The notes under the pieces are model-generated. The model made no database searches. It saw only the letters and a program-made list of their open reading frames with translations, and was not told where the DNA came from. A DNA stretch of 44,967 nucleotides from an uncultured delta proteobacterium (GTDB lineage Bacteria; Myxococcota_A; Polyangia; Polyangiales; Polyangiaceae). The stretch spans positions 300,948 through 345,914 of the forward strand of contig CAVSWE010000003.1 in NCBI GenBank assembly GCA_963731595.1. Direction: 5' to 3'. Made by a program: the position numbers and the translations under genes. How positions within the stretch are numbered: the stretch's first letter is position 1; each line of letters starts with the position of its first letter. Below are positions 804-36,288 of this stretch, piece by piece.

Positions 804-942
804 CACTCGCCGACGGACCACGCGCTAGCTTCACGGGGCCTCGCCCGGATGACTGCAGCGGCCCGTGGACGGGCCGTTTCAGCCGGGACCGCGAGCCCGG
901 AAACGAGCACGGCGTCGACCACGCCGGGAAAGGAAGCGCACG

Positions 943-1750
943 ATGGAGCATAGCGGCCCGCTCATCGCCGGCGTCGGGCTCACCGACCCTGCCCGGCGCA
1001 GCCATTGGCCGGCGAGGCTGGACCTGGCGCAGAGCGCCTCGGGTCTCCTGCTCGCGCTTTTCATGTGGGCGCATATGGCCTTCGTCTCGTCGATCCTGCT
1101 TGGCAAGGACGTCATGTGGATGGTCACGAAATTCTTTGAAGGCTATTTTCTCTTCGGCCGGTCCTATCCGGGGCTTGTCTCGACCGTGGTCGCGCTGGTC
1201 ATCGCGCTCGTGGTAACGCACGCCATTCTGGCGCTGCGCAAATTCCCGATTAACTACCGTCAGTTCAGCACCTTTCGCGGCCATATGCGGATGCTGCGGC
1301 ACGAGGACACAACGCTTTGGTTCTGGCAGGTTGTCACTGGCTTCGCCCTGTTCTTTCTCGCCTCGGTGCACCTCTACATCATGCTTACCCGGCCCGACCG
1401 TATCGGGCCGTTCGAATCCGCCGACCGGGTGTGGAGCGACCATTTCTGGCCGCTGTATATCGTGCTACTGCTGACCGTCGAGGTGCACGGCGGGGTCGGC
1501 CTGTACCGGCTTGGCCGTAAAATGGGGTTGGTTCGCAGGCGGCGATGCGAACGCGGTGCGGCGTCGGCTCAAGCTCGCCAAATGGGCGCTGACGGCCTTC
1601 TTTCTGGTCCTTGGCGTGGCGACTCTGGCCGCCTATATCAAGATCGGCATCGAGCACCGTGACCACTATGGCGAGCACTACGTTCCCGCGGCGCAGCAAG
1701 CGTCGTCACCCCAACCCGCCGCTGGGGGCGCGGCGGGGAGCCCTCGGTGA
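943..1750 (+). CDS. frdC: Fumarate reductase/succinate dehydrogenase dihaem cytochrome b subunit (type B, Wolinella-like), with one apparent +1 frame disruption near 1510
   Basis: The ATG at 943 follows AGGAAG. The protein reads MEHSGPL...[13 protein letters not shown]...HGGVGLYRL, then the frame must shift (cttGgcc) to continue [11 protein letters not shown]...[12 protein letters not shown]. The stop overlaps the frdA GTG as GTGA at 1747-1750. Confidence 0.8.
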
Positions 1751-3765
1751 ACGTGATCTACACCGACGTGCTGGTGATCGGCGGTGGCCTCGCCGGGTTG
1801 CGGATCGGCATCGGTGCCAAACGCCGCGGCCAAGACGTGATCATCCTGTCGCTCGTCCCGCCCAAGCGCTCGCACTCTGCGGCGGCGCAAGGCGGCATGC
1901 AGGCGAGCCTGGGCAACGTCGTCAAGGCGATGGGTGACAACGAGGACGTGCATTTCGAAGACACCGTGCGGGGCAGCGACTGGGGCGCCGATCAGCGCGT
2001 CGTGCGCATGTTCGTCGACACGGCGCCCAAGGCCGTGCGCGAGCTTGCCGCGTGGGGCGTGCCGTGGAGCCGCGTGCAGAAAGGTGACCGGAAGGTGATC
2101 ATCAACGGGCAGAAGGTCACGATCACGGAGCGCGACGAAGCGCATGGACTGGTGATGCAACGCGACTTCGGTGGTACCAAGAAATGGCGCGCCTGCTACG
2201 TCTCCGACGGCACGGGTCACGCCATGCTGTACGCGATGAGCGACCAGGCAATCGCCCACGCGATCAGCGTGCACGAGCGCATGGAGGCCCTGGCGCTGAT
2301 CCACGACGGGTCGCGCTGCTATGGTGCGGTAGTACGCAACCTCGTGACCGGGAAATTGGTCGCGTACGTCGCCAAGGCTACCGCCATTGCGAGCGGCGGC
2401 GCGGGACGCCTCTATCGCGCGACGACCAACGCGGTCATCTGCGAGGGCATCGGCACGGCGCTGGCGTTGGAGACCGGCGTGGCAATGGTAGCCAACATGG
2501 AGGCGATCCAGTTTCACCCGACGGCAATCTTTCCGGCATGCATTCTGGTCACCGAAGGCTGCCGTGGGGACGGTGGATTGCTGCGCGACGCTGCGGGCAA
2601 GCGCTTCATGCCCGACTACGAGCCGGAGAAGAAGGAACTCGCCTCGCGCGACGTCGTATCCCGGCGCATGGAAGAGCACATCCGCAGGGGCGCGGGCGTG
2701 AAGTCACGGTTCGGCGAGCATCTGTGGCTCGACATCACCCTGCTCGGGGCCAAGCACATCGACAGCAACCTGCGCGAAGTGAAGGAGATCTGCCACTATT
2801 TCCTCGGCATCGATCCGATCAAGGATTGGATACCGGTGCGACCGGCACAGCATTACACGATGGGCGGGATCCGGACCGACCACACCGGCGGTAGCCCGAC
2901 GCTCAAAGGACTCTACGCCGCCGGCGAAGCCGCGTGCTGGGACCTGCACGGCTTTAACCGCCTGGGTGGAAACTCGGTCGCGGAAACCGTCGTCGGCGGC
3001 ATGATCGTGGGCGAGTTCATCGCCGATTTCTGTGCTCGTCCCGAGAGCAACCTGCAGTTCTCCACCGGCCTGATCCGCGAATTCCTGGAGCACGAGCAGG
3101 CCAAGCTCGACGCGCTCGCCGGTAACCGGGGCGGGGAAGAAGCCAACGCATTGCGGGTCCGAATGCAGGAGATCATGACGACCAAGGTCGGGATCTTCCG
3201 CACCGGCGGGGAGCTTGCCGCCGCGGTCGAGGAGCTGCAGTCGCTGCTGCGGCGCAGTCAGAACATCGGCCTGCGCTGCACCGCAAGTGGCGCAAATCCG
3301 GAGCTCGTTTCCGCCTACCGGGTCCAGAAGATGCTGCGGCTGGCGCTGTGCGTCGCCTACGGCGCGCTGACTCGGACCGAGAGCCGGGGCGCGCATTTTC
3401 GCCATGACTATCCGCGGCGCGACGACGCCGAATGGCTGAACCGCACGCTAGCAACGTGGAAGAGCGCCGACGACATGCTGCCGACGCTGGCACGCGAATC
3501 GCTTGACGTGATGCAGATGGAGCTGCCGCCGGGGTGGCGCGGATATGGGGCGAAGGACTACGTCGAGCATCCCGACACGGCGCGTCGTACCGCGGAGGTG
3601 GAGGCGATCAGGACCAGGCTCGTCAGTGCCGGCCGCGGGGTCGTACAGGAGGCCCTGATGCCGTACGCTGAGCTCATGCCCGAGCGCTTCCGCGGACCCA
3701 ACGAGCGCATCGATGAGCCGCTGCCACCGTCTCCCGCAGGCCCGCAACGACCGAGCCCGACATGA
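1747..3765 (+). CDS. frdA: Fumarate reductase/succinate dehydrogenase flavoprotein subunit
   Basis: An intact 672-aa ORF. It shows the FAD-binding N-terminus [22 protein letters not shown] (the covalent-FAD histidine context), and [18 protein letters not shown] near the C-terminal domain. Confidence 0.95.
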
Positions 3766-6306: not shown

Positions 6307-6309
6307 GCC

Positions 6310-7605: not shown

Positions 7606-7701
7606 GTCCGGCGGGTCGAATCGACAAACGGCCGCTTTTCCGCGGCTATGTTACTCCGACCCACTTCGCAGATAAACTTCAGTTCTTTTGGCCCAACCAG
7701 T

Positions 7702-7953
7702 ATGCGGCTCGCAAAGTTCGTCAAGGTACGCGAGGAGAAATTTGGCGGCGTCCTCTTCGAGACGCGCTCGGAGAAGGTTTTTACGCTCAATCCAACGGCC
7801 ATGGCGGTCGTGCGCGAGATCGAAGCAGGCCATGACGAGCGCGAGATCGCCATGCGACTGAAGGCGCGCTTTAACGACAGTACCGACGTGATCGAGCGCG
7901 AAGTCGTCGCGTTCATCGCGGAGCTGCGGCAGAGAAGCCTTGTCGAGGGTTGA
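7702..7953 (+). CDS. PqqD/MftB-like peptide chaperone (RiPP recognition element protein)
   Basis: An 83-aa protein, MRLAKFVKVREEKFGGVLFETRSEKVFTLNPTAMAVVREIEAG... The R-E-x-FGgvL segment and overall size resemble the MftB RPExFGAL/PqqD family. Its end overlaps the next gene. Confidence 0.75.
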   Translation: MRLAKFVKVREEKFGGVLFETRSEKVFTLNPTAMAVVREIEAGHDEREIAMRLKARFNDSTDVIEREVVAFIAELRQRSLVEG

Positions 7954-8959
7954 GCGCGTGACAACATTGGCAACGGATAACGGACCCGACTCCGCGATCC
8001 CAGCGACGACCTCGACCTACGCCTGCTCGGAGGACCTCGCCGCGCCACTCTACGTGGCCTGGCAGATCACCAACGAATGCAACCTCGCCTGCCTGCACTG
8101 TATCGAGGAGAGCGGGCCGGGCAAGGCGTTCGCAGATGAGCTCGACGCGGCGCAGATATTCTCGGTGCTCGACCAGTTGCTGGACCACCAAGTCCCCTAC
8201 ATGTCCTTCTCGGGCGGCGAGCCTATGCTGCATCCGCAGTTCTTCGAGATGGTGGAGCACGTCTGCGCGCGTGGCGCCCAGCTCAAGATCGAGACCAACG
8301 GTCATTATCTGTCCGCCGAAAACTGTGCGCGGATGAAGGAACTCGGCGTCAAGGCGGTCCAGGTGAGCCTCGACGGCGCGTCCGCCAAGACGTTCGAGCG
8401 TATGCGCGTGCGCGGGAACTTCGATCGCACGCTCGATGGCCTGCGCAACCTTCGCGCGGCAGGCGTGCCCGTGGAGATTAACTTCTCGCCCGCCTGCTTC
8501 AACGTCCATGAGATCGGCGCGGTCGTCGACCTCGCATACAAGCTGGGCGCATACAGCTTCTACACCGGGACGCACGATGTACACCGGCAACGCCGTCAAG
8601 GCTTGGCGCCACCTGGAAGTTTCGGAGCCGAGCAATACGAGGCGTTCTTCGCTGTTCTGCGGCAAAAAGCCGAGGAGTACCACGGCCGCATGCGCGTCTA
8701 CTTTCACGAGGCGGGGTTGCTCGAGGAGCTGCGTTATCGCCTGCAGCACCCGGCTGCGCTGCTGATCGTGCTCCCGAACGGCCTGGTCAAGCTCATCAAC
8801 GCCTTGCCCTTCGTGTGCGGCGATTTTCGCCGCCAGACGCTGCGGGAAATCTGGGCGAATTTCCGCCGCGCCTGGCACGACCCGCGCGTGGCACAGTTCG
8901 TCGACGAGCTTGGCACCGACCCGGGCGGACACGGACGCTGCACCAATGGGTCTATCTTT
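7940..8959 (+). CDS. Radical SAM peptide-maturase-like protein, paralog 1 (MftC/PqqE-like N-terminal half, no SPASM cysteine cluster), frame-disrupted
   Basis: Motifs present: WQITNECNLACLHC (CxxxCxxC), FSGGEPMLHP, LKIETNG, VQVSLDGAS. Around 8568-8627 the paralog-conserved segment TGRTMYTGNAVKAWRHLEVS lies in another frame, implying two compensating shifts. The C-terminal LIVLPNGLVKLINALPFVCGDFRRQTLREIW is conserved. The true stop is uncertain: 8957-8959 if shifted at aatggg, otherwise the ORF runs to 9112. The start is TTG 7940 or GTG 7958. Confidence 0.75.
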
Positions 8960-9897
8960 GACTGCGCTGCCCGTGCGATCCGGCCGTTCGGCGCGCACGG
9001 CGCTGCACCGGCTGCTCGCCGTTTGCCGCCTGGTGCGCTACCGGTTTTTCCTATATGCCGGGCTGCTGCCGTATCTGCTCGGCGCGGCCTGGGCCTACGC
9101 TCGCGCTGGTAGCCTTCGACGCGCCGATTTTCTGGAGCGGCCTCGCGGGTGTAGTGCTCGCCGTAATCGGCGTCGAGGCATTCAACGAGTATTTCGATTC
9201 ACGCATGGGCACCGACCGCGTCTTCAACCCGGCCGAACTCCCGCCGATGTCTGACGCAGTGCTCTGGTTGGGCATTGCGGCCTTCGCCGGCGCGCTGGCG
9301 GTCGGCATCTACCTGACCGTGCGTGGCGGCTGGCCGATCCTGGCCTTCGCACTCCTGGGTGGAACGGCGGCGATCTTTTATGTGGCGCCCCCGATACGCT
9401 GGGCCTATCGTGGCCTGGGCGAACTGGTCATCGCCCTGTCCTACGGGCCCTGGATGGTACTGGGCAGCCTCTACCTGCAGAGCCAGGCGCTGTCGTGGGG
9501 GGCGCTCTTCGCGTCGCTCGTACCGGGATGCCTGATCATGGCGCTCGCGGTCGTCAACGCGATTCCCGATTACCACCAGGATCGCTTGGTCGGCAAGCGC
9601 AATCTCGTCGTGCGGCTCGGCCGCCGGCGCGCGGTTTGGCTGTATCTTGCCCTTGCGGCAGGCGGACTGCTGGTGGTGCCGGTCGGCGTAGCGAGCGGCA
9701 TCTCCCCGCCACCTGCCTGGCGGCCTTACTGGCGGTGCCGCTGCTCGTGGCCAGCGGCCGCTGCGCGCTGCGGCACTTATGAAACACCGCGCGCCTTTGT
9801 TCCCGCCGTGCGCAGCATCGTCGGCTGCTATCTGGTCGCCGTCGTGCTGTTCACCGCCGGCGTCCTGTGCAGTGGCGTAGCGTCCTTGCGCCCATGA
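8946..9897 (+). CDS. UbiA-superfamily (MenA-like) polyprenyltransferase, frame-disrupted
   Basis: First Asp-rich motif is AFNEYFDSRMGTD (NxxxDxxxxxxD form). Second motif is IPDYHQDRLVGKRNLVVRLG (MenA-like DxxxDxxxGKxxL). The protein is multi-TM and hydrophobic. Frame changes are needed near 9099, near 9700 and near 9775, where the alternate frame gives the hydrophobic LAALLAVPLLVASG. Its TGA overlaps the next ATG (ATGA at 9894-9897). Confidence 0.75.
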
Positions 9898-10856
9898 ACT
9901 GGATCGATCGCCTGCGCGCGCCGCTGTTCGTGTCCTGGCAGATCACGCGCGACTGCGACCTGTGCTGCCTGCATTGCTGCACCGAGTCGGCGCCGGGGAA
10001 GCGGTTGCCGGACGAACTCGACGCTGCCGAAGCGACGTGGCTGGCCGAGGAGATCGTCCGCAACGCAGTGCCCTACGTGATGCTTTGCGGCGGCGAGCCT
10101 TTGGTCGTGCCGCACTTTTTCGCCCTTGCCGAAGTCGCTGGGGCGGGCAGGCGTCCAGCTGAAGATCGAGACGAACGGGCAGCGCTTCGATGCCAAACTC
10201 GCCGCCCGGCTCGCCCGCCTGCCCGTCCGGTCGGTACAGATTAGCCTGGACGGCGACACACAGGAGGTCTACGAGCGCCAGCGGCCCGGGCGGCTTCGCT
10301 CGCCAAAGCCCATGCGGCCTGCCGCGCCGCTCGTGCGGCCGGGCTGCCGCTCGAAGTCACCTTTGCGCCGACCCGGCTCAACATTCACCAGGCCGGGCCG
10401 GTCATCGAGCGGGCGCGGGCGCTTGGTGCCTTTCGCTTCAATACCGGGCGGCTCATGCGCATCGGCACCGCCGCGCGGCTGTGGGAGAAGCTCGAGCCTT
10501 GCCGAGGAGCAATACCGGGAATTCCGCGCCTGTTGAACCGCATGGCCCGGCGCCTAGAGGGGCAACTGGAGATTTGCCATGCTCCGTTTGACCTCGCGGA
10601 AGGGCTGCGCGGCAGCCTCCAGAACGCCGCCGGCAACCCTGCTCGTGCTGCCCAACGGCTGGGTCAAGGTTGCCGCGGCACTGCCGCAGATCTGCGCTGA
10701 CTTGCGCCGCCATAGCCTTGACGGAGGCCTGGGAGGCCTACCGCAACGCGTGGCGGAGTGATACAGTGCTGGCGGAAGTACGGCGCGCGGTCGCCGATCC
10801 ATCGCGTCACGCGCGAGGCCAACAGTTGGCAGTTGTTGCCCGTCGCCCCGGTGTGA
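9894..10856 (+). pseudogene. Radical SAM peptide-maturase-like protein, paralog 2, needing about 6-7 frame changes to read
   Basis: Recognisable pieces lie in alternating frames: MNWIDRLRAPLFVSWQITRDCDLCCLHCCTESAPGK, LCGGEPLVVP, VQLKIETNGQRF, VQISLDGDTQEVYERQRPG, AAGLPLEVTFAPTRLNIHQAGPVIERARALGAFRFNTGRLMRIGTAARLWEKLEP, EEQYREFRA, LNRMARRLEGQLEICHAPFD, LLVLPNGWVKVAAALPQICADLRRHSLD, EAWEAYRNAWRSDTVLAEV. The stop is at 10854-10856 or 10859-10861. Confidence 0.7.
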
Positions 10857-10871
10857 CCTGACGGAGGGAAA

Positions 10872-11026
10872 ATGAGCGAGTTGAACCTGACGATCGAAGC
10901 CGCCAAGACCGGCGACGAACGCAAGACCGATACGGTGCAGCCGGCGCAAAAGCCGCATGGGAAACGCCCAAGCTCGAGGACGTGTCCGAGCAGGTGATGG
11001 CCCAACCGTATATCCGCTTCACCTGA
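10872..11026 (+). CDS. Candidate precursor peptide (PqqA/MftA-like), with one frame disruption in an A4 run
   Basis: GGAGGG sits 3-4 nt before the ATG at 10872. Frame 0 reads MSELNLTIEAAKTGDERKTDTVQPAQK, and after the aaaa run at 10948-10951 the -1 frame reads AAWETPKLEDVSEQVMAQPYIRFT-stop at 11024-11026. The second frame has no start codon of its own upstream. The gene lies between radical SAM paralogs 2 and 3. Confidence 0.6.
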
Positions 11027-11045
11027 GATACCCAGAACTTTCGCA

Positions 11046-12013
11046 ATGCCGGGGCGTTCGGTAGAAGAGTACCGAGCACCCCTTTTTCTTGCCTGGCAGC
11101 TGACCAACCGCTGCGCTGCGCGCTGCATCACCTGCTGCGAGGAATCCGGTCCCGATAAGGCATGGGGCGATGAGCTTTCCCGTGACGAGGCGATCGCGCT
11201 TGCACGGCGCATCGCGGCGTTCGGCATCGCCTACGTTGCCTTCGGCGGCGGCGAGCCGCTAGGTGTACCGCATTGCTGGGATCTGCTCGAGCTGCTCGCC
11301 GCGGCCGGCATCGCTCTTAAGATCGAGACCGACGGCAGTCACATCGACGCTTCCGCGGCCGATCGGCTCTCGGCGCTCGGCGTCGAGTGCATCCAAATTT
11401 CGGTCGACGGAGCGACAGCGGCGACGCATGAGCGCGTGCGTCCGGGATCGAGCTTCGCCGCGGCGGTCGCCGCCATCGAGCGACTGGTCGCGCGCGGTCG
11501 TGCACCGCAATTGGTGTTCGTTCCCACCCGCTTCAACTGCACGAGATCGTCGCCGCGTTCGATCTGGCGGCAACGCTCGGCTGCGGCGCATTCGTCACCG
11601 GCCCGCTGATGCGCATCGGCCGCGCCGCGGGCGCACTGGCAGCGCATCGCCTGCAGCAGACGAGGAGTGGCGCGCCGCGGTTACCGCGTTGAGAGAACGC
11701 ACCGCGTCGATGCGGCCCCGGAATGGCCCTTGTCGATCTATCCTTGGGACATTCGTTGCGGAGATGGAAACGCGGCTCGAGCGACCGCAGGCGATGCTGC
11801 TGGTCGTGCCCAACGGCAAGGTCAAGCTGCTCAATGCGCTCCCGTTCGCCGCCGCCGACCTGCGCCGCGATTCGCTCGAGGACGCGTGGCGGGCCTATCG
11901 CGACGCCTGGCATGCGCCGGAGGTGCGCGAATTCATCACCCGCTGCCGCAGCCAATCCAGCGCTGCTGATGCACGCCAATGAGACATGGCCGATGGTTAG
12001 GAACGACGGTTGA
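11046..12013 (+). pseudogene. Radical SAM peptide-maturase-like protein, paralog 3, needing about 5-6 frame changes to read
   Basis: Recognisable pieces: APLFLAWQLTNRCAARCITCCEESGPDK, FGGGEPLGVP, ALKIETDGSHI, IQISVDGATAATHERVRPGSSF, FVPTRFN then LHEIVAAFDLAATLGCGAFVTGPLMRIGRAAG, DEEWRAAVTALRER, EMETRLERPQAMLLVVPNGKVKLLNALPFAAADLRRDSLEDAWRAYRDAWHAPEVREFI. The C-terminus is either ...SAADARQ (stop at 11982) or NPALLMHANETWPMVRNDG (stop at 12013). Confidence 0.7.
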
Positions 12014-12112
12014 CCCCCGCGCCAGAAACCCCAATACTTAAGCGGCTGTGATTGAATACTTACCCGTCGTAGCGAAGCTTTTGAGGGCCCGGGAGCCCGC
12101 TGATCGGTTGCG

Positions 12113-12442
12113 ATGCATCGACTGACATTGGGACTACTCGCCGCCTGCACCGCTGGCGCAATCGCGGTTGCGGCCCAGCCAGCGCCGGACAGCTCCCGCG
12201 GCGAGCTCCTCTATTCCACCCATTGCATCGGTTGCCATAGCGCGCAGGTGCATTGGCGCGAAAAGAGGCTGGCGACAGACTGGGCAAGTCTCAGGATGCA
12301 AGTATTTCGATGGCAGATGAACACGGGCCTCGCCTGGAGCGACGAGGACATCGTCGCTGTCACCCGCTATCTGAACGATCTCTACTACCGTTTTCCGACG
12401 CCGGACAGGCCGGTGGCATTTCAGGGGTCGTCGGGTAACTGA
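12113..12442 (+). CDS. Small periplasmic monohaem cytochrome c
   Basis: An intact 109-aa ORF with a signal peptide (MHRLTLGLLAACTAGAIAVAAQP) and a single CIGCH haem-binding motif. Confidence 0.8.
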   Translation: MHRLTLGLLAACTAGAIAVAAQPAPDSSRGELLYSTHCIGCHSAQVHWREKRLATDWASLRMQVFRWQMNTGLAWSDEDIVAVTRYLNDLYYRFPTPDRPVAFQGSSGN

Positions 12443-12585
12443 TCCCGGGCTGCCGCGTCAAATCGATGTGAGTCGCTCGTTCTTTGCCGTCGACAAATGC
12501 TCTAGCTCGGGAGGCGCGCGCATACGACGGTCGAGTCCATCTCCCAGCGAGTGATCACTCGTGCCCCCAACGCGAGTGTACTGTT

Positions 12586-13095
12586 CTAGCTTGGCCGCCG
12601 CTGCAATAACGTGCCCAGGAGCAGAGCGAAGCCCAGGAAAATGACAAGCGACGCTTGCGCCAGAGTAAGTCCCAGGATCTTAAAGGACGTATCGGAACAG
12701 TCTCCCGTGGCATGCAGCAGTTGGGTCAGTACTTCGCTGACCGCCATGGTGTCCAGCATGTAGGCCAGGCCGGCACTGCAAGAGGCGACGCTTGGTGCCG
12801 GAAAAAGTTGCAGGTACGTCTGATAGCCGGCGACCCCGAGTCCTTCCAACGTCAGGATCGCAGCCATCCAAAGGAGAGCCCGCTGTACTCGACCTTGGGG
12901 CCGCGCCACGGCTGCGGCAAAGAAGACGGGTATCAGGCCAAGATACGTGAGCCGTTGGATGATGCACAAGGGGCACGGTTCGATCCCCAGTATGTGCTGG
13001 ACAAAAAAGCTTGCACCGACAAGACCGGTGCAGGTCACTCCAAGCAAGATCGAAACTTGGGCAGGAGAAGTCAGCACACGCGAAAGCCTATTCAC
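12586..13095 (-). CDS. dsbB: Disulfide bond formation protein B
   Basis: An intact 169-aa four-TM protein with CPLCIIQR in the first periplasmic loop and a second Cys pair region (SCSAG ... DCSD). Confidence 0.85.
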   Translation of the reverse strand: MNRLSRVLTSPAQVSILLGVTCTGLVGASFFVQHILGIEPCPLCIIQRLTYLGLIPVFFAAAVARPQGRVQRALLWMAAILTLEGLGVAGYQTYLQLFPAPSVASCSAGLAYMLDTMAVSEVLTQLLHATGDCSDTSFKILGLTLAQASLVIFLGFALLLGTLLQRRPS

Positions 13096-13511
13096 GGAAA
13101 TCGGCCGGCAATGCAGCTCCCCGCGGGACCCAGTACGCTAGGGGAATTTTGCCACGTCCGAGCCTGATCTCAGAAGTTTCTCCTCCGCAAAGGGCTGCTT
13201 CACCGCCCCAGGCCCGACGCGCGGAGCTTGGCCGCAATGGCTGGTGAATTTCGGCTTCACGACCCGGTGATCGCCCGGAGGCGCATCGCGAAATGCGCCT
13301 GGTCTGCGCCAAAGTGGCGCGAACGGCGCCTGGTTGACAGTCGGGGAATCGCCTGGCGGTTGCATGTTAAATCAATAACTTGCGACGCTTACCCTCTTAG
13401 TTGCGCATGAATTAGCGTCGTTGGAGTTTCCTTGAGGTACATCAACAGCCCAGATACGGCTTGGCTATAGGCTTCGTATTGCGGTGCAACAAAATCACGT
13501 CAGGAGCGCCC

Positions 13512-14327
13512 ATGGAGTTTCAAGGAAAAGTTGCGGTAATTACCGGTGCGGCCAGCGGCATCGGACGGGCGGTGGCGTTTGAATTGGCGCGCCGCAACGT
13601 GCGCGCGATGGCGCTGGTGGACATAGGCGAGAACATCGATGGCGTCGCCGCAGAAGTCAATGCGAAGGCCGGCCGTCAGGTCGCCTACCCTTACCGGGGC
13701 GATACGACCGACGAGGCGTTTCGCGCTTCGGTTTTCGATTCCATCAGTAGCCAGTTCGACACCGTCACGATGTGCGTGCCGGCCGCCGGCATCACGCGCG
13801 ACGAACTTGCAGTCCGTATCGACAAGATCACTGGCAAGGCACGGATCTATCCGGTGGACCGGTTCAAGCAGGTCATCGATGTGAACCTCGTGGCGCCGGT
13901 CTACTGGGCGCTCGAGATGATCGGACGCATCGCCGAGAATCGCGCCGCCTGCGGCCTCAAGCGATGGCAGCCGTCGGAGGGCATGCAAGGGGCCATAGTG
14001 TTCATCGGCTCAGTTTCTTCGCAGGGCAATCGTGGCCAGATCTCCTACGCCAGCGCCAAGGCCGGCCTCGAGGGAGCGGCCGCGACGATTATGAAGGAGG
14101 CGGTTTTCTACGGCGTTCGCTGCGGGCTTATCCACCCGGGGTTCACCGACACACCTATGGTGCGCGCAATGGGTGATGACTACATCAGCAAGCACATATT
14201 ACCTTTCACCCAATTGAGCCGGTTGATTCGCCCCGAGGAAATTGCCGATGCGATCTGCTTCATGCTCGCCAACTCGGCGGTGAGCGGCGAATTGTGGGCG
14301 GACGCAGGCTGGCATGCACCCGCGTAG
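13512..14327 (+). CDS. Short-chain dehydrogenase/reductase (SDR) family oxidoreductase
   Basis: CAGGAG precedes the ATG at 13512. The cofactor motif is MEFQGKVAVITGAASGIGRA (TGxxxGxG), and YASAKAG is the catalytic YxxxK. The ORF is intact. Confidence 0.88.
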   Translation: MEFQGKVAVITGAASGIGRAVAFELARRNVRAMALVDIGENIDGVAAEVNAKAGRQVAYPYRGDTTDEAFRASVFDSISSQFDTVTMCVPAAGITRDELAVRIDKITGKARIYPVDRFKQVIDVNLVAPVYWALEMIGRIAENRAACGLKRWQPSEGMQGAIVFIGSVSSQGNRGQISYASAKAGLEGAAATIMKEAVFYGVRCGLIHPGFTDTPMVRAMGDDYISKHILPFTQLSRLIRPEEIADAICFMLANSAVSGELWADAGWHAPA

Positions 14328-14631
14328 CCGCGGTGACCTGGCAGCTTCGAGCGAGGGTCCTACCGCTGCTCCGCCGACGCGGGATGAGGCCGTCGACACG
14401 GAGGGTGAATCCGAGGTGCCGGCGCGCGGCGCCCAGCGGCAATGGCCCGGAACGGATCCGAACCAGTTTCCTTGGACTAAGGCTCTCGCCGGCGATCCCA
14501 GTCTTGTCGCGCCGGTGATTGCCTCGCCGGAGGAGATCCTCCGTGCCCGGGAAATACGAGAGCAACTCAAGAAGACATACTTAGATCGCCCAAGCCAACC
14601 TTGCTCCCTATGGTGGGTTGATATTGACTAA
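14314..14631 (+). CDS. Hypothetical protein (Pro/Ala/Glu-rich N-terminus, C-terminus ...EEILRAREIREQLKKTYLDRPSQPCSLWWVDID)
   Basis: This is an open frame only, overlapping the SDR stop by 14 nt. I do not recognise the family. Confidence 0.25.
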   Translation: MHPRSRGDLAASSEGPTAAPPTRDEAVDTEGESEVPARGAQRQWPGTDPNQFPWTKALAGDPSLVAPVIASPEEILRAREIREQLKKTYLDRPSQPCSLWWVDID

Positions 14632-14904
14632 GTAACCCGTAGCCGGGTCGCCAATTTTCGGGCCAATGTTAGACGAACCCGCCATCTTGTGCCGTGAACA
14701 GCAGATCCCATGGACTGTCGCCAGTGCCGATCCAATATGAAATCAATCCTTCTTCTCGACCTTACGCGAACTCAGCGAGAAAATGTAGCACTTGCAGTAT
14801 TGCAATAGGGTTTCGGGAGCTTGGGCTGTTGCACCGTGGACATTATGGCGACGCAAGGAGCTCCAGCGCGAGGGCTCGAGGCAACCGATGATCTGCGAAC
14901 GCTC

Positions 14905-16553
14905 TTATGGACGCGCGGCGTCGATGCGCTCGCGGACCGCCCGCCACGCATCCGGCTGGCGCGCCTGCTCGAGCGGCGCTTCGCTATCGTAGGCGACGAC
15001 GAACGCCTGCTCCTCCGGCGCGAGGGGCTCGCACGTACGTAGCTGATAATCGAGCACCGCCAAATCGGCGTCCGAAGCGTCGGATCCTGCCGCGGCACGC
15101 TGCGCTATGCGCTCCCGAAGGGTCGAGTGCGCGCCATGAAATCCACGATCACGAAGGCGATGCCGAGCTCGATCGCGAGATTGCGGAAGAGGTCTCGCTG
15201 CCAGCGGTTGAGGAAAGTCGCGTCGATAATTGCAACGAAGCCGGCACCGACCACCTCTCGCGCCAGCGCGCCAAGCTCCCGGTATGTCGCCTCCGTCGCG
15301 CCGGCCGCGTACAGGCCACGATCGATGCCCGTCGCACCGCGCTCGTGGGCGTCGAGCCCGTGCATGCGCTTGCGCTCGACGTCGCTGCGGATTCGCACCG
15401 CGCCGATCGTCTCCAGCAGCACTCTGCGACAGGGTGGTCTTGCCGCAGCCGGCGAGCCCGTGGGTGACGAGGAGCGCGGGCCGTGTCGGCTGCGCGTAGC
15501 TTCGCGCCAGAGTCACGTGCGCGCGGTATTCGGCAAGCAATGCGCGTCGCGCTGCGCCGGCTTCGAGCTGTGCCGCGCGCAGCCGCGCGATCTTGGCGCG
15601 CACCATCGCGCGGTACACGAGATAGAAGCGCAGCACGGTCAGGCCAGCGTAGTCCCCCGTCCGCTCCAGGTACGCGTTGAGGAAGCGACGGGCCAGATCG
15701 ACTCGTCCGCGATAGTGGAGATCCATGACCGTGAACGCGACCTCGTTCATCACATCAATCCAGCGCATCGCCTCGTTGAATTCGATGCAATCGAAAATGA
15801 CAAGCTCGTCGTCGATGCGCGCGATGTTGTTGAGATGCAGGTCGCCGTGGCACTCGCGGATGAAGCCTTCCTTGCGCCGCCGCAGGAATGCGCCTTGGCA
15901 CGCGGCATGCTCGCGGTCGGTCCAGACGCGGAGCTCTTCGAGCTCGTCGCGTTCCGCCGCCGTCGCCACGTGCGGTCGGAACTGCGCGAAATTTTGCCGC
16001 GCGACGCGCAGAATCTCCTCCGGCGAGCCGAATGTGCCGTCGCGAGGAACGACACCGCTCGAGTCGTGAAAGGCGGCGACCTTCGCCGCCAGCGCATCAA
16101 TGTCGGCGGGTGAGAGCTCGCCGCGCGCCAGGATGCGGCTGGCCAGCGCGTCCTGCGGGAACTCGCGCATCTTCACCGCGTACTCGAGTGCCGGACCGTC
16201 GCCGCCGAGGACCGGAGCGTCAATGCTGCCCGTTATCGGCACGACGTCGAGGTAGAGCGCGGGTGCAAGCCGGCGATTGAGGCGCAACTCCTCTGTGCAG
16301 AAGAATCGCCGCGCCGCGAGTGTCGTGAAATCGAGAAAGCCGAAGTCGACCGCTTTCTTGATCTTGTACGCGTAGTGCCCGGCCAGGAAAACGCAGGAGA
16401 TGTGCGTTTCCAGCCGCTCGACGCGCCGCAGTCCGGCCCGAAGACCGCGGGACGGGAGAGCGCCGCCAGCAGTCGAACCTGATCCGTCTCGGTTGCGACG
16501 AGGGTCGTGGCCCGCTCGGGCGGCATGCGGTGGAAGATGCGTGGTGGCATCTG
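14905..16553 (-). pseudogene. Bifunctional aminoglycoside-phosphotransferase-like / P-loop (AAA_33-type) kinase, with at least 3 frame disruptions
   Basis: Pieces in different frames: ...LLAALSRPAVFGPD; VERLETHISCVFLAGHYAYKIKKAVDFGFLDFTTLAARRFFCTEELRLNRRLAPALYLDVVPITG; HGDLHLNNI (kinase catalytic loop); THGLAGCGKTTLSQ (P-loop); LLETIGAVRIRSDVERKRMHGL...FVAIIDATFLNRWQRDLF. Confidence 0.7.
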
Positions 16554-16569
16554 GCCGCCTGAAACTGAT

Positions 16570-17051
16570 TCAGCCCGTGAACTCATGCGCCCTGACCTGG
16601 CCGTGCTGGCGGCGAGCGACGTCTTTCAGCCGCGCGGTGAGGCTCGCGAAGCCGTCGCGCAGCGCGACATACACTTCCTCGTCGTGGTCGCAATTGACGA
16701 CGAGCTCGTGGCCCGGAAGATCCGTGAGGTCCGGATTGCCACCATGCGACGGCATCTGTCGGACACCCTTAAGCGCATTCTTTTCCGCACCCGCCCGGTG
16801 CTCCAACTTCAGCCGGTCAAGCAGCGGTGCCGCGTCCGGAAGGCGCACACGCAAAAGCTGGAACAGATACTGATCCTCCTTGGGATGGTGAAAGCACTCG
16901 CGGAATGCATCGATGTAATAGATCATCGCCCCAGCACGCCGAAATCCGACGTGGCTCCCCGGTCGCGGATCTGGTGCACCAGATAAAGCATGCCGTGCAA
17001 GACCGCCGCCAGCGAACGGTGTTCGTCCTGAATGGCGCGGTTCGCCTGCAT
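16570..17051 (-). CDS. Hemerythrin-like (HHE cation-binding) domain protein, with one frame disruption near 16925
   Basis: Reads MQANRAIQDEHRSLAAVLHGMLYLVHQIRDRGATSDFGVLG, then shifts to AMIYYIDAFRECFHHPKEDQYLFQLL...LEHRAG. The start is 26 nt downstream of the reconstructed hemN stop. Confidence 0.6.
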
Positions 17052-17076
17052 ATTCGTCCTTCTTTCCCGAATGCAT

Positions 17077-18478
17077 CAGATGATGCGCGAGTTGCGCGCC
17101 GCCCACGCTGCTCACGCAGGTAACGGTCGAATACCATCGCCACCGTGCGAACTAAGAGCCGACCGCGCGGCGTCACGTGGATCGCGTCCGATGCGATTTC
17201 GACCAACCCGTCGTCGGCCAGCGGTGCAAGTGACTTGAGCTCGGTTGCGAAGTAATCGCGGAACGCGATGGCGTACGCGCTCTCGACGCGCTCGAACGAG
17301 ACGGTGAATTGGCACATGAACGCGTGGATCACATCGCGCCGCAAAACGGTCGTCGGCAGAAAGCCGCCAGCCGCGAAAACATGGTAGCGCATCGTCGTCG
17401 AGCCGGGCGTAGTAATCATCCAGAGTACGCAGATTCTGGCTGTAGGACGCACCGACCTTGCCGATTGCGGAAATACCGAATGCCAAAAGATCGCAATCAG
17501 CGTGCGTCGAGTAGCCTTGAAAATTGCGGTGCAGCTTGCCTCACGCTGTGCGACAGCAAGCGCGTCGTCGGGCCGCGCGAAATGATCCATGCCGATGTAG
17601 ACGTAACCGGCGCCGGTCAACTTTTCGATTGCAAGCTCAAGAAGGGCTAACTTGGCCTCCGCCGACGGCAACTCCGCTTCGCTGATGCGCCGCTGCGGCT
17701 TAAACAGATGTGGCACGTGCGCATAGCTGTATAGCGCAAGTCTATCCGGCGCACCGTCGAGCACCTTGTCCAACGTGACGGCCGAAGCCGGCCAAAGTCT
17801 GCCGCGGGAGACCATAGATTAAGTCGATGTTTAAGGAGCGGAAGCCATTCGCACGTGCGGCGTCGAGTACAAATGCGAGTCTCGGCTTCCGATTGAATGC
17901 GGTTCACCGCCTGTTGTACGGCTGGGTCGAAGTCCTGTACGCCGATGCTCATCCGGTTGAAGCCAAGCTCCGAGAGAAGCTTAACCGTCCCGGCGACGCC
18001 AAATGGCGGGGGTCGACTTCGATCGAGCATTCGGCGTCAGGCACAAACGCAAAGCTGTCGTGTAGGACACGCCATAGCAACTGTCATTTCCTCGGCCGAC
18101 AGGAACGTCGGCGTGCCGCCGCCCCAGTGCAACTGTGTGACGGGGGACGCCGAATCGACGAGCCCCGACACGATTGCGACCTCCCTGCCGAGATAGTGGA
18201 TATATTTTGCGGAGCGGCCATGGTCCCGGGTCGTGACCTTGTTGCACGCGCAGTAGTAGCAGATGGTGTTGCAGAACGGCACGTGCACGTACAGCGACAG
18301 CGGCTGCGGCGCGCCGGCTCTGGCGGTTGACAAGCGCGTTAGCGAGATGGTCGGCGGTGAATGCTTCCGTAAAGCGATCTGCCGTCGGATAGGAGGTGTA
18401 GCGCGGCCCAAAGCCATCGTACTTGCGGATCAGATCCGAGTCGAACGGGAGGCCTGTAGTCGGCGTGCAGTGAACCAT
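17077..18478 (-). pseudogene. hemN: Oxygen-independent coproporphyrinogen III oxidase (radical SAM HemN), needing about 6 frame changes to read
   Basis: HemN-collinear pieces: FDSDLIRKYDGFGPRYTSYPTA; PLSLYVHVPFCNTICYYCACNK (CxxxCxxC); LHWGGGTPTFLS; [25 protein letters not shown]; [22 protein letters not shown]; GYVYIGMDHFARPDDALAVAQREA; GISAIGKVGASYSQNLRTLDDYY; RDVIHAFMCQF; GLVEIASDAIHVTPRGRLLVRTVAMVFDRYLREQ; the terminal ARNSRII-stop lies in a third frame. Confidence 0.85.
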
Positions 18479-18512
18479 GTTGGCATCGTGCCAGCCGACC
18501 ATTGCTTTGAAC

Positions 18513-18526
18513 TTGAGCTAGATCAA
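18513..18526. promoter_or_regulatory. FNR/Anr-type box TTGAG-CTAG-ATCAA upstream of hemN
   Basis: Matches TTGAT-N4-ATCAA at 9 of 10 positions. It is centred about 41 nt upstream of the candidate hemN ATG at 18478. hemN is classically FNR/Anr-activated. Confidence 0.5.
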
Positions 18527-18706
18527 GCCGGCTGCAGACTCGTTCAGAATCGTGGACACGTGCGCACGTTGCCTCGGCCCATCGCCTATTCGACATCCAT
18601 GTCAGACTGACCGGCCGGGGGGGGCGATTTCTGGGTAGTCCGCACGCCACCACGTCGAGCGACGTAAAGCCACACGGTCGAGGCAAAGTGTGCAGAGAGC
18701 TAAGCA

Positions 18707-31056: not shown

Positions 31057-31944
31057 ATGTTCCGAGCACGCCTCGGATTGGAAGTCGCCGCCTGTTTGCT
31101 TTGGCTGACCCCGGCTGCCGGTGCCTTGGCAGCAGCGGTTGAGCTTAACCCGACCCCTGGCGCACTGGTGCAGGCGATGCAAGGCCACCGCGTCGTCCTG
31201 CTCGGGGAGGTACACGACAATGCCGCACAACACGCGCTGCGAGCCGCGGCCTTGCGCCAATGGGTCCTGCAGGGCGCTCGTCCCGCTCTCGCGTTCGAGC
31301 AGTTCGACCGGGAACGTCAGGCCGACATCGAACGCGCCCGGCGCGAACGGCCAACCGACGCCGATTACCTCATCGCGCAAGCCAAGAGCGGCGGCGACTG
31401 GCGCTGGGAATCCTACCGTCCGTTCGTGGCTTTGGCGCTCGAATATGGACTACCGATCGTCGCCGCGAATCTGTCTCGCGGCGAGGCGATGCAGGTGGCA
31501 AAGGACGGCTGGCCTGCGCTTTTCGATTCGGCGACACGCAGCGCTCTTGCGCTCGACGCGCTACCCGCCGACTTCTGGCACAAACACGAGGATGCGATTG
31601 CCCTCGGCCATTGCAACTTGCTCTCGGCAGAAGAGCTGCCGGCCCTGGCGCGCGCACAAATGGCGCGCGACATCGTCATAGCGCGTTCGATCCGCCCTTA
31701 CATCGACCGGGGCGTCGTGCTCTTGACCGGAAATGGTCATGTGCGTCGTGACATCGGAGTTCCATTCTGGCTACCGGCTGATGCTGCGCAGAGTGCGCTT
31801 AGTATTGGCATGCTTGAGCGCGACGACGGATTGGCGTCCGAGTCCGCGGACGAATTCGATGCCTATGTAATCACCGAACGCGCCCAGCGAACGGACCCCT
31901 GCATAGGACTGACAAGAGACCTCAAGCATGCCACTTCGCCATGA
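31057..31944 (+). CDS. ChaN-like haem-binding/uptake (Tiki superfamily) protein
   Basis: A signal-like N-terminus (MFRARLGLEVAACLLWLTPAAGALAA) is followed by VVLLGEVHDNAAQHALRAA..., FEQFDRERQ, and LLTGNGHVRRDIGVPFWL (GNGH motif). The start at 31042 is an alternative. Confidence 0.7.
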   Translation: MFRARLGLEVAACLLWLTPAAGALAAAVELNPTPGALVQAMQGHRVVLLGEVHDNAAQHALRAAALRQWVLQGARPALAFEQFDRERQADIERARRERPTDADYLIAQAKSGGDWRWESYRPFVALALEYGLPIVAANLSRGEAMQVAKDGWPALFDSATRSALALDALPADFWHKHEDAIALGHCNLLSAEELPALARAQMARDIVIARSIRPYIDRGVVLLTGNGHVRRDIGVPFWLPADAAQSALSIGMLERDDGLASESADEFDAYVITERAQRTDPCIGLTRDLKHATSP

Positions 31945-32182
31945 GCGCAGGACAATCCCCTTCGGTACTAAGCGCGGAAGTCGAAGTGCGACGGACGAAG
32001 TGCCGAGCGTGACGCGCTCAATATGAAGAATTTCGCGCGAAGAAAGGCCGCGTCGCGCTCACTGGCTCCATATGGTTAAACAAGCCTGCCGTCGAATGCG
32101 TGCCAAGAACCCCGTACGACGAATGAGGTATAAAGAACCGGTTGAGTTCGTTCGTAGAGCACCCGACTACATCGATCCAAGA

Positions 32183-32731
32183 ATGTCGGACCGTCTAATG
32201 TCTCTCAAAACCGCTTGGCGGCTTATTTGCGTGGCCATGTTGTGGACCGGGGCTTGGATCTGCCATGCGCAGATGCATAGTGGAGAACTGAAGACCATTG
32301 CTATCCTTGAATTTGATCTTGTAGATGATCAGCACGAGCTTTCTCCTGCAACCGTCGAATATCAGCGTCTGACCGCAATCCATGACCAGTTGCAAGACGA
32401 GTTCGCCAAAAACGGTCTGTATCGCATCATCGACGTGGGACCAGCCACGGAGCTAATCAAGGTGCATCAATCCAGGTCCCAGCTACGTGAATGCAATGGT
32501 TGCGAGCTTGACATAGCTCGCTCGTTGCAAGCCGATCGGGTCTTGATTGGCTGGGTCCAGAAGGTGAGCAATCTGATTGTCAATATCAACATTCAGATTG
32601 AAGATGCGGCAACCGGCGCGATATTGCTGAACAAATCGGTCGACTTGCGCGGCAATACGGACGAGTCTTGGGGACGCGGCGTCTCCTATATCGTCAAAAG
32701 CATGATCGAGAAAAACCAAGGCAATCTTTGA
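32183..32731 (+). CDS. Periplasmic DUF3280/DUF2380-like protein
   Basis: A signal peptide (MSLKTAWRLICVAMLWTGAWICHAQ) is followed by IAILEFDLVDD..., CNGCELDIARSLQADRVLIGWVQKVSNLIVNINIQIED and DLRGNTDESWGRG. I recall this pattern for that family, but the name is from memory. The start may be 32198. Confidence 0.55.
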   Translation: MSDRLMSLKTAWRLICVAMLWTGAWICHAQMHSGELKTIAILEFDLVDDQHELSPATVEYQRLTAIHDQLQDEFAKNGLYRIIDVGPATELIKVHQSRSQLRECNGCELDIARSLQADRVLIGWVQKVSNLIVNINIQIEDAATGAILLNKSVDLRGNTDESWGRGVSYIVKSMIEKNQGNL

Positions 32732-32905
32732 CAAAACAATCCCGGTAAGTAGATCAGGTCGGTCGACGTCCTGAGCACCGGGTACTAAGTGCCTCGCGCC
32801 AAGTGCGTCGTGCTTCGAGCGACAACGCCGATGAGATTTGACGCTGATCAAAGCTAGGAATATGGTTGCCGAGAGATTGATGTTTCGGAACCCTTGGCGC
32901 TGCCG

Positions 32906-34516: not shown

Positions 34517-34779
34517 GGACGCATGTACGGTCTTGACCGCGACGCAGTGCCGGTAGCGATCCTCGGGTGCGTCGCTGCACAGAAGCGCGCAGAAGCTAAA
34601 CAAACCCCGCTCGGAAGGCGAGGTCCTCGCACCTGGCACGGCGCACTGAGTTCTTAGCCGTCGTGCGAAGTGCTCCGAGCTCTGAACTGCGAATGACGCG
34701 CGGTTGCATCAACGGGTCCATCGCTCCCGGCTGGCGTTGAGGCGTGTACCATGAGACTGTTATTCGCAGAGCGGCGATC

Positions 34780-35349
34780 ATGAACACGAAAGCAAGGCTC
34801 GACGAAGCCAGCGCTCGTAGGATCGCGGCGGGGCGCTTAGCAGCGATTCAAGACCGCATAGTTGCTGGACTCGGGGCGCTGGGCCCACTACCAACGAAGC
34901 CCATAGCGCGAGAGCAGAGGATGACCGCTGTTCTCAGACGGGCATTCGGTGACTGGCTGCTTGGCGTAAGGCAATGGGGTCGTAGGACGGGGTATCTGGT
35001 TGCGCAACCCAGTGACCCGGACGGTTGGATTGCAATCGTACTTATCATGTATAACGCCCGCAGCGACCGAAAGCAATTCTGGGTCTTGGCGAGCATTTCG
35101 GCGCACGCCACCGCTCGGCTCTTAGAACGGCGGCGCGACGTGAACCTAGAGCGGATTCTTGAAGAGGAACTGGGCGGCGCGGCAGCGTTAATTGAGTTCG
35201 CCGTAAGGTTCTGCCTAAATAAACTTAGCGATGAAGAAGCGCGCCAGACCAGTTTCGTATTTAGCACGACAAATGGCGAATTCCGACTGACGCGCGACGG
35301 TGATTCGCTAGTCGCGACGACTTGGGTGCCCAAGAAGGCAGGGTCATAG
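34780..35349 (+). CDS. Hypothetical protein
   Basis: A 189-201 codon open frame with no recognisable motifs. The start is 34744 or 34780. Confidence 0.3.
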   Translation: MNTKARLDEASARRIAAGRLAAIQDRIVAGLGALGPLPTKPIAREQRMTAVLRRAFGDWLLGVRQWGRRTGYLVAQPSDPDGWIAIVLIMYNARSDRKQFWVLASISAHATARLLERRRDVNLERILEEELGGAAALIEFAVRFCLNKLSDEEARQTSFVFSTTNGEFRLTRDGDSLVATTWVPKKAGS

Positions 35350-35465
35350 GGAGTCTGCCCGGGCTCGCACTTGGTAGCGAGTCTCCGCACTTTGTACCTG
35401 GTGCTTCGAAGAACCATTTCGTATAACGATCAAGCATCCTCGACTCGCTTACGAAGCGGTGCCCA

Positions 35466-36041: not shown

Positions 36042-36135
36042 CCACGCCATTGTGCCGATCCCAACGGACGACCAGAAAGGCCACCTACGGAAAGAGCTTT
36101 AGGACTGCTCGGGGTCGGTTCGGGACTGTCGATGA

Positions 36136-36288
36136 ATAGGCGGCTCTCGAGTAGCAGACAGCCGCGAATTCGAGCTCGCGGGAATTGCAGTGCACGTGGG
36201 CGCGCGGATTGCCGCGACGGCGCATGCCGGCGAGGTAGTCGTGTCGAGCACCGTGCGCGATCTTGTTGCCGGCTCAGGGCTCGAGCTA
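36136..36288 (+). pseudogene. Orphan C-terminal fragment of an adenylate/guanylate cyclase catalytic domain
   Basis: Reads ...EFELAGIAVHVGARIAATAHAGEVVVSSTVRDLVAGSGLEL. This is the conserved GxAVHxGARIxxxAxxGEVLVSxTVxDLVxGSG block, with no N-terminal part. It ends where the IS fragment begins. Confidence 0.5.

Follow-up and report, generated by a model that had tools for sequence, protein, structure and literature searches.

The DNA analysed here, referred to as the window, is a stretch of 44,967 nucleotides within a deposited 345.9-kb contig of a metagenome-assembled genome (MAG). Its first part, positions 1–18974, was compared with a sister contig, L001 (ENA ERZ25039546 contig_25596), to which it is 98.46 % identical. 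This part holds the frd and dct genes, a cluster of three radical SAM (rSAM) genes with a prenyltransferase gene and a short conserved ORF, and a kinase–hemerythrin–hemN block; an IS5-family transposase gene and part of a sulfatase gene lie further downstream. The features considered below are as follows:

834..876, small patch of four indels in 43 bp, upstream of frdC
1747..3765, plus strand, frdA, clean control; 0 indels and 20 substitutions relative to L001, 19 of them synonymous
7702..7953, plus strand, PqqD-family peptide chaperone gene (Pfam PF05402); intact, with one synonymous substitution and 0 indels
7958..8961, plus strand, radical SAM gene 1, 333 aa in relatives; three +1 insertions (8565, 8627, 8631) and one −1 deletion (8925)
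8946..9880, plus strand, UbiA/MenA-like prenyltransferase gene, 310 aa in relatives; six indels
9894..10856, plus strand, radical SAM gene 2, 318 aa in relatives; eight indels
10872..11026, plus strand, conserved 51-aa ORF (MSELNLTIEAAKT...QPYIRFT), candidate precursor peptide; broken by a 1-nt deletion at 10957
11046..12013, plus strand, radical SAM gene 3, 320 aa in relatives; seven indels
8565..11954, hot patch 1, within rSAM1–UbiA–rSAM2–peptide–rSAM3; 27 window-private indels of one base each, of which 20 are insertions and 7 deletions, 8.0 per kb, from a three-way alignment with L001 and a Logan contig, L002
14905..16550, minus strand, APH/AAA_33 kinase-like gene, 548 aa in L001; three indels, at 15127, 15422 and 16425
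16570..16926, minus strand, hemerythrin-domain gene, 118 aa; identical to L001, with 0 indels and 0 substitutions
17076..18502, minus strand, hemN, oxygen-independent coproporphyrinogen III oxidase gene, 474 aa and full-length in L001; 10 indels in the window
17066..18699, hot patch 2; 13 single-base indels private to the window, 8.0 per kb, 10 of the 13 in hemN
31868..36320, clean control segment; 99.955–100 % identical to Logan contigs of two sequencing runs, 0 indels
38309..39377, plus strand, IS5-family transposase gene, 349 aa in homologs; at least nine frame changes (≈8.4 per kb), from a tblastn search of the window with P0124, P0128 and P0135

The alignment of window 1–18974 with L001 contained 55 single-base gaps, and about 50 of the indels were private to the window. 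Counted in 1-kb bins, the gaps numbered 4, 1, 0, 1, 0, 1, 1 and 0 from 0 to 8 kb, 6, 6, 11 and 7 from 8 to 12 kb, 0 and 0 from 12 to 14 kb, and 1, 2, 1, 8 and 5 from 14 to 19 kb. The variance-to-mean ratio of these counts was 4.1, a value reached in none of 100,000 random redistributions (p < 1e-5). This agrees with the sequence-only reading, which had described the disruptions as bunched and had held that a uniform error rate could not produce the pattern. Relative to L001, frdA and the segments 5493–8564 and 11955–14723 contained no private indels. At a uniform rate, the Poisson probability of finding none would be 0.005 in frdA and 3e-4 in 5493–8564, while that of finding at least 27 in 8565–11954 would be 8e-7. 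A uniform error rate that merely looks clustered has the small number of events in its favour and nothing else, and on these figures its probability is negligible. The indel density was alike in three separate patches: 8.0 per kb in each of the two hot patches and at least 8.4 per kb in the IS5 gene. A GC3 frame plot of the whole window was too noisy to place frame changes, and homolog-based mapping was used instead; for 19–31.8 kb and 41–45 kb, clean status was judged from ORF lengths and the Pfam coverage of large ORFs only.

Among the genes that had been read as clean, frdA has no indels, and the SDR block has 30 substitutions and no indels relative to L001. One of them, frdB, was not clean, its second codon being interrupted by an insertion at 3784. 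When the POR–frdCAB indels were polarized, five were private to the window and none to L001.

Within 7554–12360, L002 served as the third sequence, and 27 indels were private to the window, three to L001 and none to L002. The rSAM/UbiA/peptide cluster is thus heavily disrupted, as had been claimed, although the number of frame changes had been put at 18–20. The local readings fared less evenly. One proposed compensating pair, 9700/9775, was recovered as a −1 at 9701 and a +1 at 9771, whereas the other, 8568/8627, belongs to the three insertions in rSAM1, which sum to +3. The disruption placed in an A4 homopolymer at 10948–10951 is in fact the deletion at 10957, which falls 6 nt further downstream in a CAG codon; the A4 run itself does not differ in length from that of relatives. 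The rSAM1 stop is lost in the window, and the product deposited for this gene is therefore 384 aa long (P0121). We considered selection for frame restoration and rejected it: only rSAM2 ends in frame, and the start-codon frame of the UbiA gene covers just 24 % of its length, which is no more than a random walk would give.

The kinase–hemerythrin–hemN block had been estimated to need about 10 changes. It is indeed disrupted, but the hemerythrin gene is untouched; the kinase gene has three indels, hemN has 10, and four more fall outside these genes (14724, 17066 and 18697/18699). On TIGR00538, L001 hemN scored 595.8 bits over positions 2–446 of 454, compared to 200 bits for the largest piece in the window. 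With L087, a second contig from the same assembly as L001, as the outgroup for 16953–18641, 11 indels and 15 substitutions were private to the window, and 0 indels and three substitutions to L001.

Further downstream, every protein segment of the IS5 transposase could still be found by tblastn at 70–89 % identity. The strong disruption noted earlier was confirmed, with at least nine frame changes where about eight had been counted. The 5' part of the sulfatase gene had been described as frameshifted. Mapping with full-length sulfatases from a GTDB genome scan showed instead that it is rearranged: residues 215–266 lie in reverse orientation, on the minus strand (39940→39785), and the window lacks residues 1–214. 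The same scan, with the sulfatase C-terminal ORF as query, returned no close relative (best match 82 %) and hence no syntenic reference for 30–45 kb. Exact-protein searches with the frdA, patatin, Crp and rSAM1 products of the window matched no record and thus gave no reference for 19–31.8 kb or 36.3–45 kb. A Pfam search of stop-masked six-frame translations found nothing beyond the 3' part of the sulfatase gene and weak pieces of the transposase.

All 55 gaps are 1 nt long, with 36 insertions and 19 deletions (binomial p = 0.03). In 36 of the 55 there is no identical neighbouring base, and only six lie in runs of two or more identical bases. Neither this distribution nor the unchanged A4 run is what homopolymer slippage or a phase-variable contingency locus would produce. 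A search for enriched 3- to 5-mers within 6 nt on either side of 50 sites gave nothing robust; the best k-mer, CAGAG, occurred at five sites (Bonferroni p = 0.04), a value inflated by adjacent site pairs. The GC content of the hot patches (0.67, 0.60 and 0.65) overlapped with that of the cold segments (0.66, 0.63 and 0.60). These results speak against the motif- or methylation-dependent error that had been put forward. More generally, a methylation motif, GC content or homopolymer context might make these particular sequences error-prone on the platform used, and it is true that private indels occur in the rSAM cluster of two other long-read assemblies as well (three in L001 and five to seven in L085). 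The main patches of L085 lie elsewhere, however: POR has 12 private indels in 1 kb, dctPQM has 11 in 3 kb and frdCAB has none. Both POR and dctPQM are clean in the window, while the hemN patch of the window is clean in L001. We regard a systematic cause of this kind as highly improbable.

We also considered the possibility that the rSAM/UbiA/peptide cluster, hemN, the kinase gene and the IS5 transposase are really decaying through frameshifts in this strain. The cluster and the kinase–hemerythrin genes do appear to be dispensable: L087, from a related population, lacks the rSAM/UbiA genes, dctPQM and the kinase–hemerythrin genes, and kinase–hemN is missing from L085. The 51-aa ORF has four non-synonymous substitutions and one synonymous, and dN/dS for kinase plus hemN was 0.39 (each about 0.4), above the 0.10 of the clean genes. 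This value, which is confounded by an excess of private substitutions, could reflect relaxed selection, but excess substitution errors explain it equally well. In the four large genes of the cluster itself, 83 window substitutions are synonymous and 31 non-synonymous; they fall mainly on third codon positions in the reference frame, and this concentration persists through the out-of-frame stretches. With the indels removed, the pooled dN/dS of the five cluster genes was 0.136, compared to 0.098 for the clean genes, and none of the 16 genes tested had an internal stop. Such purifying selection in the ancestral frame is expected of a consensus artefact, whereas in a decaying pseudogene dN/dS should approach 1 and the lesions should be mixed. 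Moreover, the 27 frameshifts in the cluster compare with no more than about 35 non-synonymous changes over 4 kb, and in the hemN block there are 11 indels to 15 substitutions.

Indels that arise naturally in bacteria are generally biased towards deletions, variable in size and concentrated in repeats. Here, every event is exactly 1 nt, insertions prevail, 65 % lie outside homopolymers, and the density of 8 per kb recurs in three unrelated patches. As in pseudogene decay in host-restricted or recently specialized bacterial lineages, several neighbouring genes are multiply disrupted and the same genes are lost outright in L087; unlike in such decay, dN/dS is not relaxed in the cluster, nonsense codons, multi-base deletions and deletion bias are absent, and indels are about as frequent as substitutions. 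Sister assemblies carry like damage at other positions. Recent pseudogenization is thus very unlikely. Still more doubtful is a real and very recent burst of single-base, mostly +1 G/C insertions in one strain, confined to the cluster, hemN and the IS5 copy, in which error-prone repair or a process linked to transcription, acting locally, might have inactivated the genes before substitutions accumulated. Frame changes inside transposase and other coding genes are also known from programmed ribosomal frameshifting in insertion sequences and from phase variation by homopolymer slippage, but the IS5 gene needs at least nine changes, in both directions, rather than one slippery site, and most of the indels lie outside repeats.

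The comparison with orthologous loci that the sequence-only reading had suggested showed the genes intact in independent assemblies, with most of the indels private to the window, as expected of consensus artefacts: 27 of the 30 cluster indels and all 11 of those in the hemN block. The rSAM genes are whole on Logan (k-mer) contigs from the related runs ERR12035937, ERR11594406 and ERR11571140. Two of these three contigs contain the entire cluster from PqqD to rSAM3 (83, 333, 310, 318, 51 and 320 aa), and the one from ERR11594406 terminates past the 51-aa ORF. Logan contigs L002 and L086 are both intact. The frameshifted products P0121 and P0123 were found on a single contig, of 345,914 bp. Like damage was seen elsewhere in similar assemblies: in addition to the L085 patches, L001 has errors of its own, with three private insertions in UbiA/rSAM2 and, probably, the insertion by which its dctQ call is truncated.

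Strain variation can be seen directly at these loci. L087, from the assembly that also yielded L001, lacks several of the genes concerned, as described above, and the clean segment 31868–36320 hardly varies between samples. Substitutions and indels private to the window co-localize (rho 0.60, p = 0.017). The SDR block, with its many substitutions and no indels, might seem to be a counter-example, but when polarized with L085 the divergent allele proved to be that of L001, not of the window. In the cluster, 18 of 20 insertions abut a differing third-codon-position base (12.0 expected, p = 0.003). This is the pattern that would arise had the consensus emitted both alleles of a strain SNP, but part of it could be due to sequence contexts that the error process prefers; the association is absent at the hemN indels. 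The cluster allele of the window might have been a mosaic of the L002 and L085 types, but the pairwise distances (113, 178 and 226) indicate mostly a third lineage.

Taken together, the purifying selection, the single-base spectrum and the intact orthologues favour the first of the two options left by the sequence-only reading, locally poor consensus or decaying genes. We conclude, with a probability of about 0.9, that the reading frames are broken by single-base errors in the consensus of a long-read metagenome assembly, patchy at strain-variable loci, and not by gene decay. We infer the sequencing platform and the local coverage and strain mix; only the Flye-style contig names point to a long-read origin of the window and its relatives. 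Of the causes that had been proposed, collapsed strain variation or low coverage agrees best with these results. The errors would lie in patches with ≈0.8 % indels, roughly the quality of unpolished reads, amid otherwise well-polished sequence. The patches would mark loci that differ between co-occurring strains: the divergent rSAM/UbiA allele, the hemN block beside a strain-variable junction, and the mobile IS5. At such loci, few reads or mixed alleles may support the consensus, presumably leading to a local failure of polishing. Variation of these loci between strains is the probable reason for the patches, and the confinement of the errors to stretches of about 1–3.4 kb, with 8 errors per kb, suggests that polishing was lost locally rather than that coverage was low in general.

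Frameshifting consensus indels in long-read assemblies are the target of the IDEEL test for truncated proteins. One point against a consensus artefact is the spectrum, since the errors in polished Nanopore sequence are mostly homopolymer deletions. As in known Nanopore or PacBio CLR consensus indels, gene calls in the window are fragmented by single-base indels private to one assembly while the orthologues are intact elsewhere; unlike those, the present errors are mostly outside homopolymers, biased towards insertions, and confined to patches rather than contig-wide. Nanopore consensus indels fragment gene calls below about 40× coverage (PMC9262707), and contigs named contig_N usually come from Flye followed by a single Medaka round (PMC12313526).

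Single-base frameshifts that occur in patches, at ≈8 per kb, and are combined with intact, synonymous-biased divergence can be used as a marker of locally unpolished, strain-variable sequence in long-read metagenome assemblies. The 384-aa "rSAM" (P0121) and a 207-aa IS5 fragment (P0123) are artefacts that are now in public protein databases, and the apparent loss of hemN in this MAG should not be taken as biology. If the disruptions are consensus errors, the organism itself very probably has an intact rSAM/UbiA/peptide cluster, kinase gene and hemN. Judged from sequence comparison, the PqqD/triple radical-SAM/UbiA/51-aa peptide cluster would best be treated as functional and analysed from the intact sister sequences, L002 and L086, rather than from the window.

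The ORF pieces were assigned to genes by scanning against Pfam and NCBIfam. In the window, several genes in the run from PqqD to hemN are broken across two or three frames:

7702–7953, PqqD-family gene
7958–12013, three radical-SAM paralogues (rSAM1–3) and a UbiA/MenA-like prenyltransferase
14905–18502, minus strand, APH/AAA_33 kinase-like, hemerythrin-domain and hemN genes

The first ORF (390 aa) matches 333-aa homologs, the top match at 91% identity in one alignment; relative to a 333-aa homolog, a single 20-residue stretch is out of frame in the window. The window was compared with the following sequences:

L001, ENA ERZ25039546 contig_25596 (505 kb), sister contig; collinear with window 1–18974 (98.46% identity; 55 gaps, each of one base)
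L002, Logan k-mer contig, run ERR12035937; rSAM cluster present, every gene whole
L086, Logan k-mer contig, run ERR11594406; cluster present until the contig ends after the 51-aa ORF, every gene whole
L085, ENA ERZ25039470 contig_125703; a relative at 93% identity
L087, contig_171026 from the assembly of L001; a population at ≈91–93% identity, used as outgroup
L003 and L004, Logan contigs spanning window 31868–36320

The clustering of the indels, which had been noticed in the sequence-only reading, is real and highly significant: the variance-to-mean ratio of the gaps relative to L001 is 4.1, a value reached in 0 of 100,000 permutations.

Gaps per kb in the window relative to L001
0–8 kb: 4, 1, 0, 1, 0, 1, 1, 0
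8–12 kb: 6, 6, 11, 7
12–14 kb: 0, 0
14–19 kb: 1, 2, 1, 8, 5

Each of the two main patches, 8565–11954 in the cluster and 17066–18699 around hemN, has a density of 8.0 indels per kb, while frdA, 5493–8564 and 11955–14723 have none relative to L001. After outgroup polarization, the indels private (unique) to the window amounted to 27 of 30 in the cluster, 11 of 11 in the hemN block and five in POR–frdCAB. The IS5-family transposase (38309–39377) requires at least nine frame changes relative to 349-aa homologs, or ≈8.4 per kb, where about eight had been counted. Over window 31868–36320, there were no indels relative to the two Logan contigs (99.955–100% identity). This stretch includes the ORF at 35466–36041, looked up as the presumed sodB of the sequence-only reading, which had named such a gene without coordinates within 19.9–38 kb. 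The recorded Pfam matches of this ORF are to CPT/AAA_33 (chloramphenicol-phosphotransferase-like kinase) rather than superoxide dismutase, and a sodB gene was found nowhere in the window.

The cluster had rightly been described as disrupted, but the estimate of 18–20 frame changes was too low, with 27 found. Likewise, the roughly ten changes assigned to the kinase, hemerythrin and hemN genes become 13 in the hemN patch and three in the kinase; the hemerythrin gene, listed within that block, is untouched. The frdB gene, considered clean, has an insertion at 3784, in the second codon. The proposed compensating pair at 9700/9775 is a true pair (9701/9771), while that at 8568/8627 consists of three insertions that sum to +3; across the indel-bearing frames there was no preferential restoration of frame. 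The indel placed inside the A4 run at 10948–10951 is a deletion at 10957, outside the run.

We considered whether the hot genes had undergone real inactivation or decay. All 55 gaps relative to L001 are one base long, 36 of them have no identical neighboring base, and the ratio of insertions to deletions is 36:19. When the window was projected onto intact reference frames, synonymous/non-synonymous substitutions numbered 22/5 in rSAM1, 25/12 in UbiA, 22/8 in rSAM2 and 14/6 in rSAM3. The cluster substitutions fall mainly on codon position 3, even where the window reads out of frame, and once the indels were removed there were no internal stops in any gene tested. The pooled dN/dS was 0.136 for the cluster (dS 0.087), compared to 0.098 for the clean genes. 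Twenty-seven frameshifts accompanied by so little neutral change are unlike accumulated decay. Private indels and substitutions in the hemN block number 11 and 15, respectively, in the window, compared to 0 and 3 in L001.

Comparison with orthologous loci in relatives, which the sequence-only reading had suggested, showed that Logan contigs from three related runs hold the rSAM cluster intact, with products of 83, 333, 310, 318, 51 and 320 aa in L002. HemN is full-length in L001 (TIGR00538, 595.8 bits, positions 2–446 of 454); its nearest named relatives are from Casimicrobiaceae MAGs, at 84–86% identity. The 384-aa frameshifted rSAM1 product (P0121) and the 207-aa IS5 fragment (P0123), both in the protein collection, were found on only one 345,914-bp contig (NCBI, ENA), which shows the window to be part of a deposited MAG. 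The sister assemblies, presumed to be long-read, display the same type of damage at other places. L001 has three private insertions in UbiA/rSAM2, and its dctQ call is probably shortened by a private insertion. In L085, there are 12 such private one-base indels within the first kb (POR), 11 in dctPQM and five in the cluster, with none in frdCAB. Consensus indels below ≈40× coverage, leading to fragmented gene calls, are documented for Nanopore assemblies (PMC9262707). For contigs named contig_N, the standard route is Flye followed by one Medaka round (PMC12313526); the platform of the present records is presumed.

Decay would find some support in the kinase and hemN dN/dS of ≈0.4, and in relatives that have lost these genes: L087:10000–14100 lacks dctPQM, rSAM1, UbiA, most of rSAM2 and rSAM3, and kinase–hemerythrin, while retaining the PqqD gene and a near-identical 51-aa peptide ORF. 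L087 hemN is 96–97% identical, far closer than the L087 flanks. We consider decay very improbable, as the spectrum, selection, lesion ratio, independent assemblies and sister-assembly damage all point to errors. Thus, the cause of the clustering is most likely technical. In L087:14078–16867, frdA and frdB are called as a single fused 929-aa product, and the crp-like gene beside hemN is split (106 + 144 aa), which suggests consensus error of the same type there.

Sequence-intrinsic causes do not fit the patches. Motif-dependent error had been proposed, but no k-mer was robustly enriched around 50 sites. GC values overlap between hot patches (0.67, 0.60 and 0.65) and cold segments (0.66, 0.63 and 0.60), and the hot patches differ among the three assemblies. 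Within 1–14.6 kb, 79 of 103 window-private substitutions and 27 of 33 window-private indels fall in 8–12 kb, and the two are correlated in 1-kb bins (Spearman 0.60, p = 0.017). This concentration of substitutions indicates that the window's cluster allele is real and distinct; in rSAM1, its diagnostic residues are C23, E96, E121, R166 and V188. The patches lie on DNA that varies among strains, as seen in the divergent cluster allele, the gene absences in L087, the break in L085 synteny directly after the SDR gene, and the mobile IS5; the clean 32–36 kb stretch is invariant across samples. A 424-bp tract in the SDR gene itself (13541–13964) has 30 substitutions relative to L001 (7%), mostly synonymous, and no indels. 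Polarization with L085 assigned the divergent allele to L001, and the tract resembles a short stretch of recombined DNA in that sister strain.

A consensus drawn from two alleles would emit both, or neither, at some SNPs. Of the 20 insertions in the cluster, 18 adjoin a third-codon-position base unlike the one inserted (expected 12.0, p = 0.003) and 13 would amount to synonymous alternative alleles (expected 8.9, p = 0.054); of six genic deletions, four remove a position-3 base. This bias fits a two-allele consensus; it is absent in hemN. The hemN and separate patches may instead be stretches stuck near raw-read quality, which would fit the ≈1:1 ratio of indels to substitutions in hemN and the equal density of 8 per kb across patches. 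Either mixed alleles or too few reads would represent a local polishing failure at strain-variable loci.

The 5' part of the sulfatase gene, previously considered frameshifted, is rearranged instead:

39939–40808, plus strand, sulfatase residues 263–552
39940→39785, minus strand, sulfatase residues 215–266, inverted and directly adjoining

Residues 1–214 were not found anywhere in the window. This arrangement reflects either a misassembly or a small inversion and truncation beside IS5. At 38160–38187, ≈120 nt upstream of where the transposase gene of IS5 begins, a 14-nt unit is perfectly duplicated in tandem (ATATTGTGGCATAG ×2). On the minus strand, 41344–41392 resembles the 3' half of a tRNA-Phe (GAA anticodon loop, T arm and acceptor end with CCA) without the 5' half; no tRNA was detected by ARAGORN or Rfam in the whole window. 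Stretches of 41127–41390 beside it match the integrase region of L085. Lying where the lower-GC 19–41 kb segment ends, the half-tRNA may be what remains of an attachment site.

All cluster proteins (window 7702–12013; L002:149–4447) fall short of every curated NCBIfam cut-off, and their best matches, to the radical-SAM families of mycofactocin, NirJ and AhbD, score far below threshold. The order PqqD, rSAM, UbiA/MenA-like prenyltransferase, rSAM, 51-aa ORF, rSAM is intact in the sister strains (L002:149–4447), and the 51-aa ORF (MSELNLTIEAAKTDNERKTDTVQPAQKLQWETPRLEDVSEQVMAQPYIRFT) is nearly invariant between strains. We take the clustering of indels to be no biological feature. In this lineage, the candidate rSAM/UbiA/peptide system should be considered intact, and it is best studied from the sister sequences.
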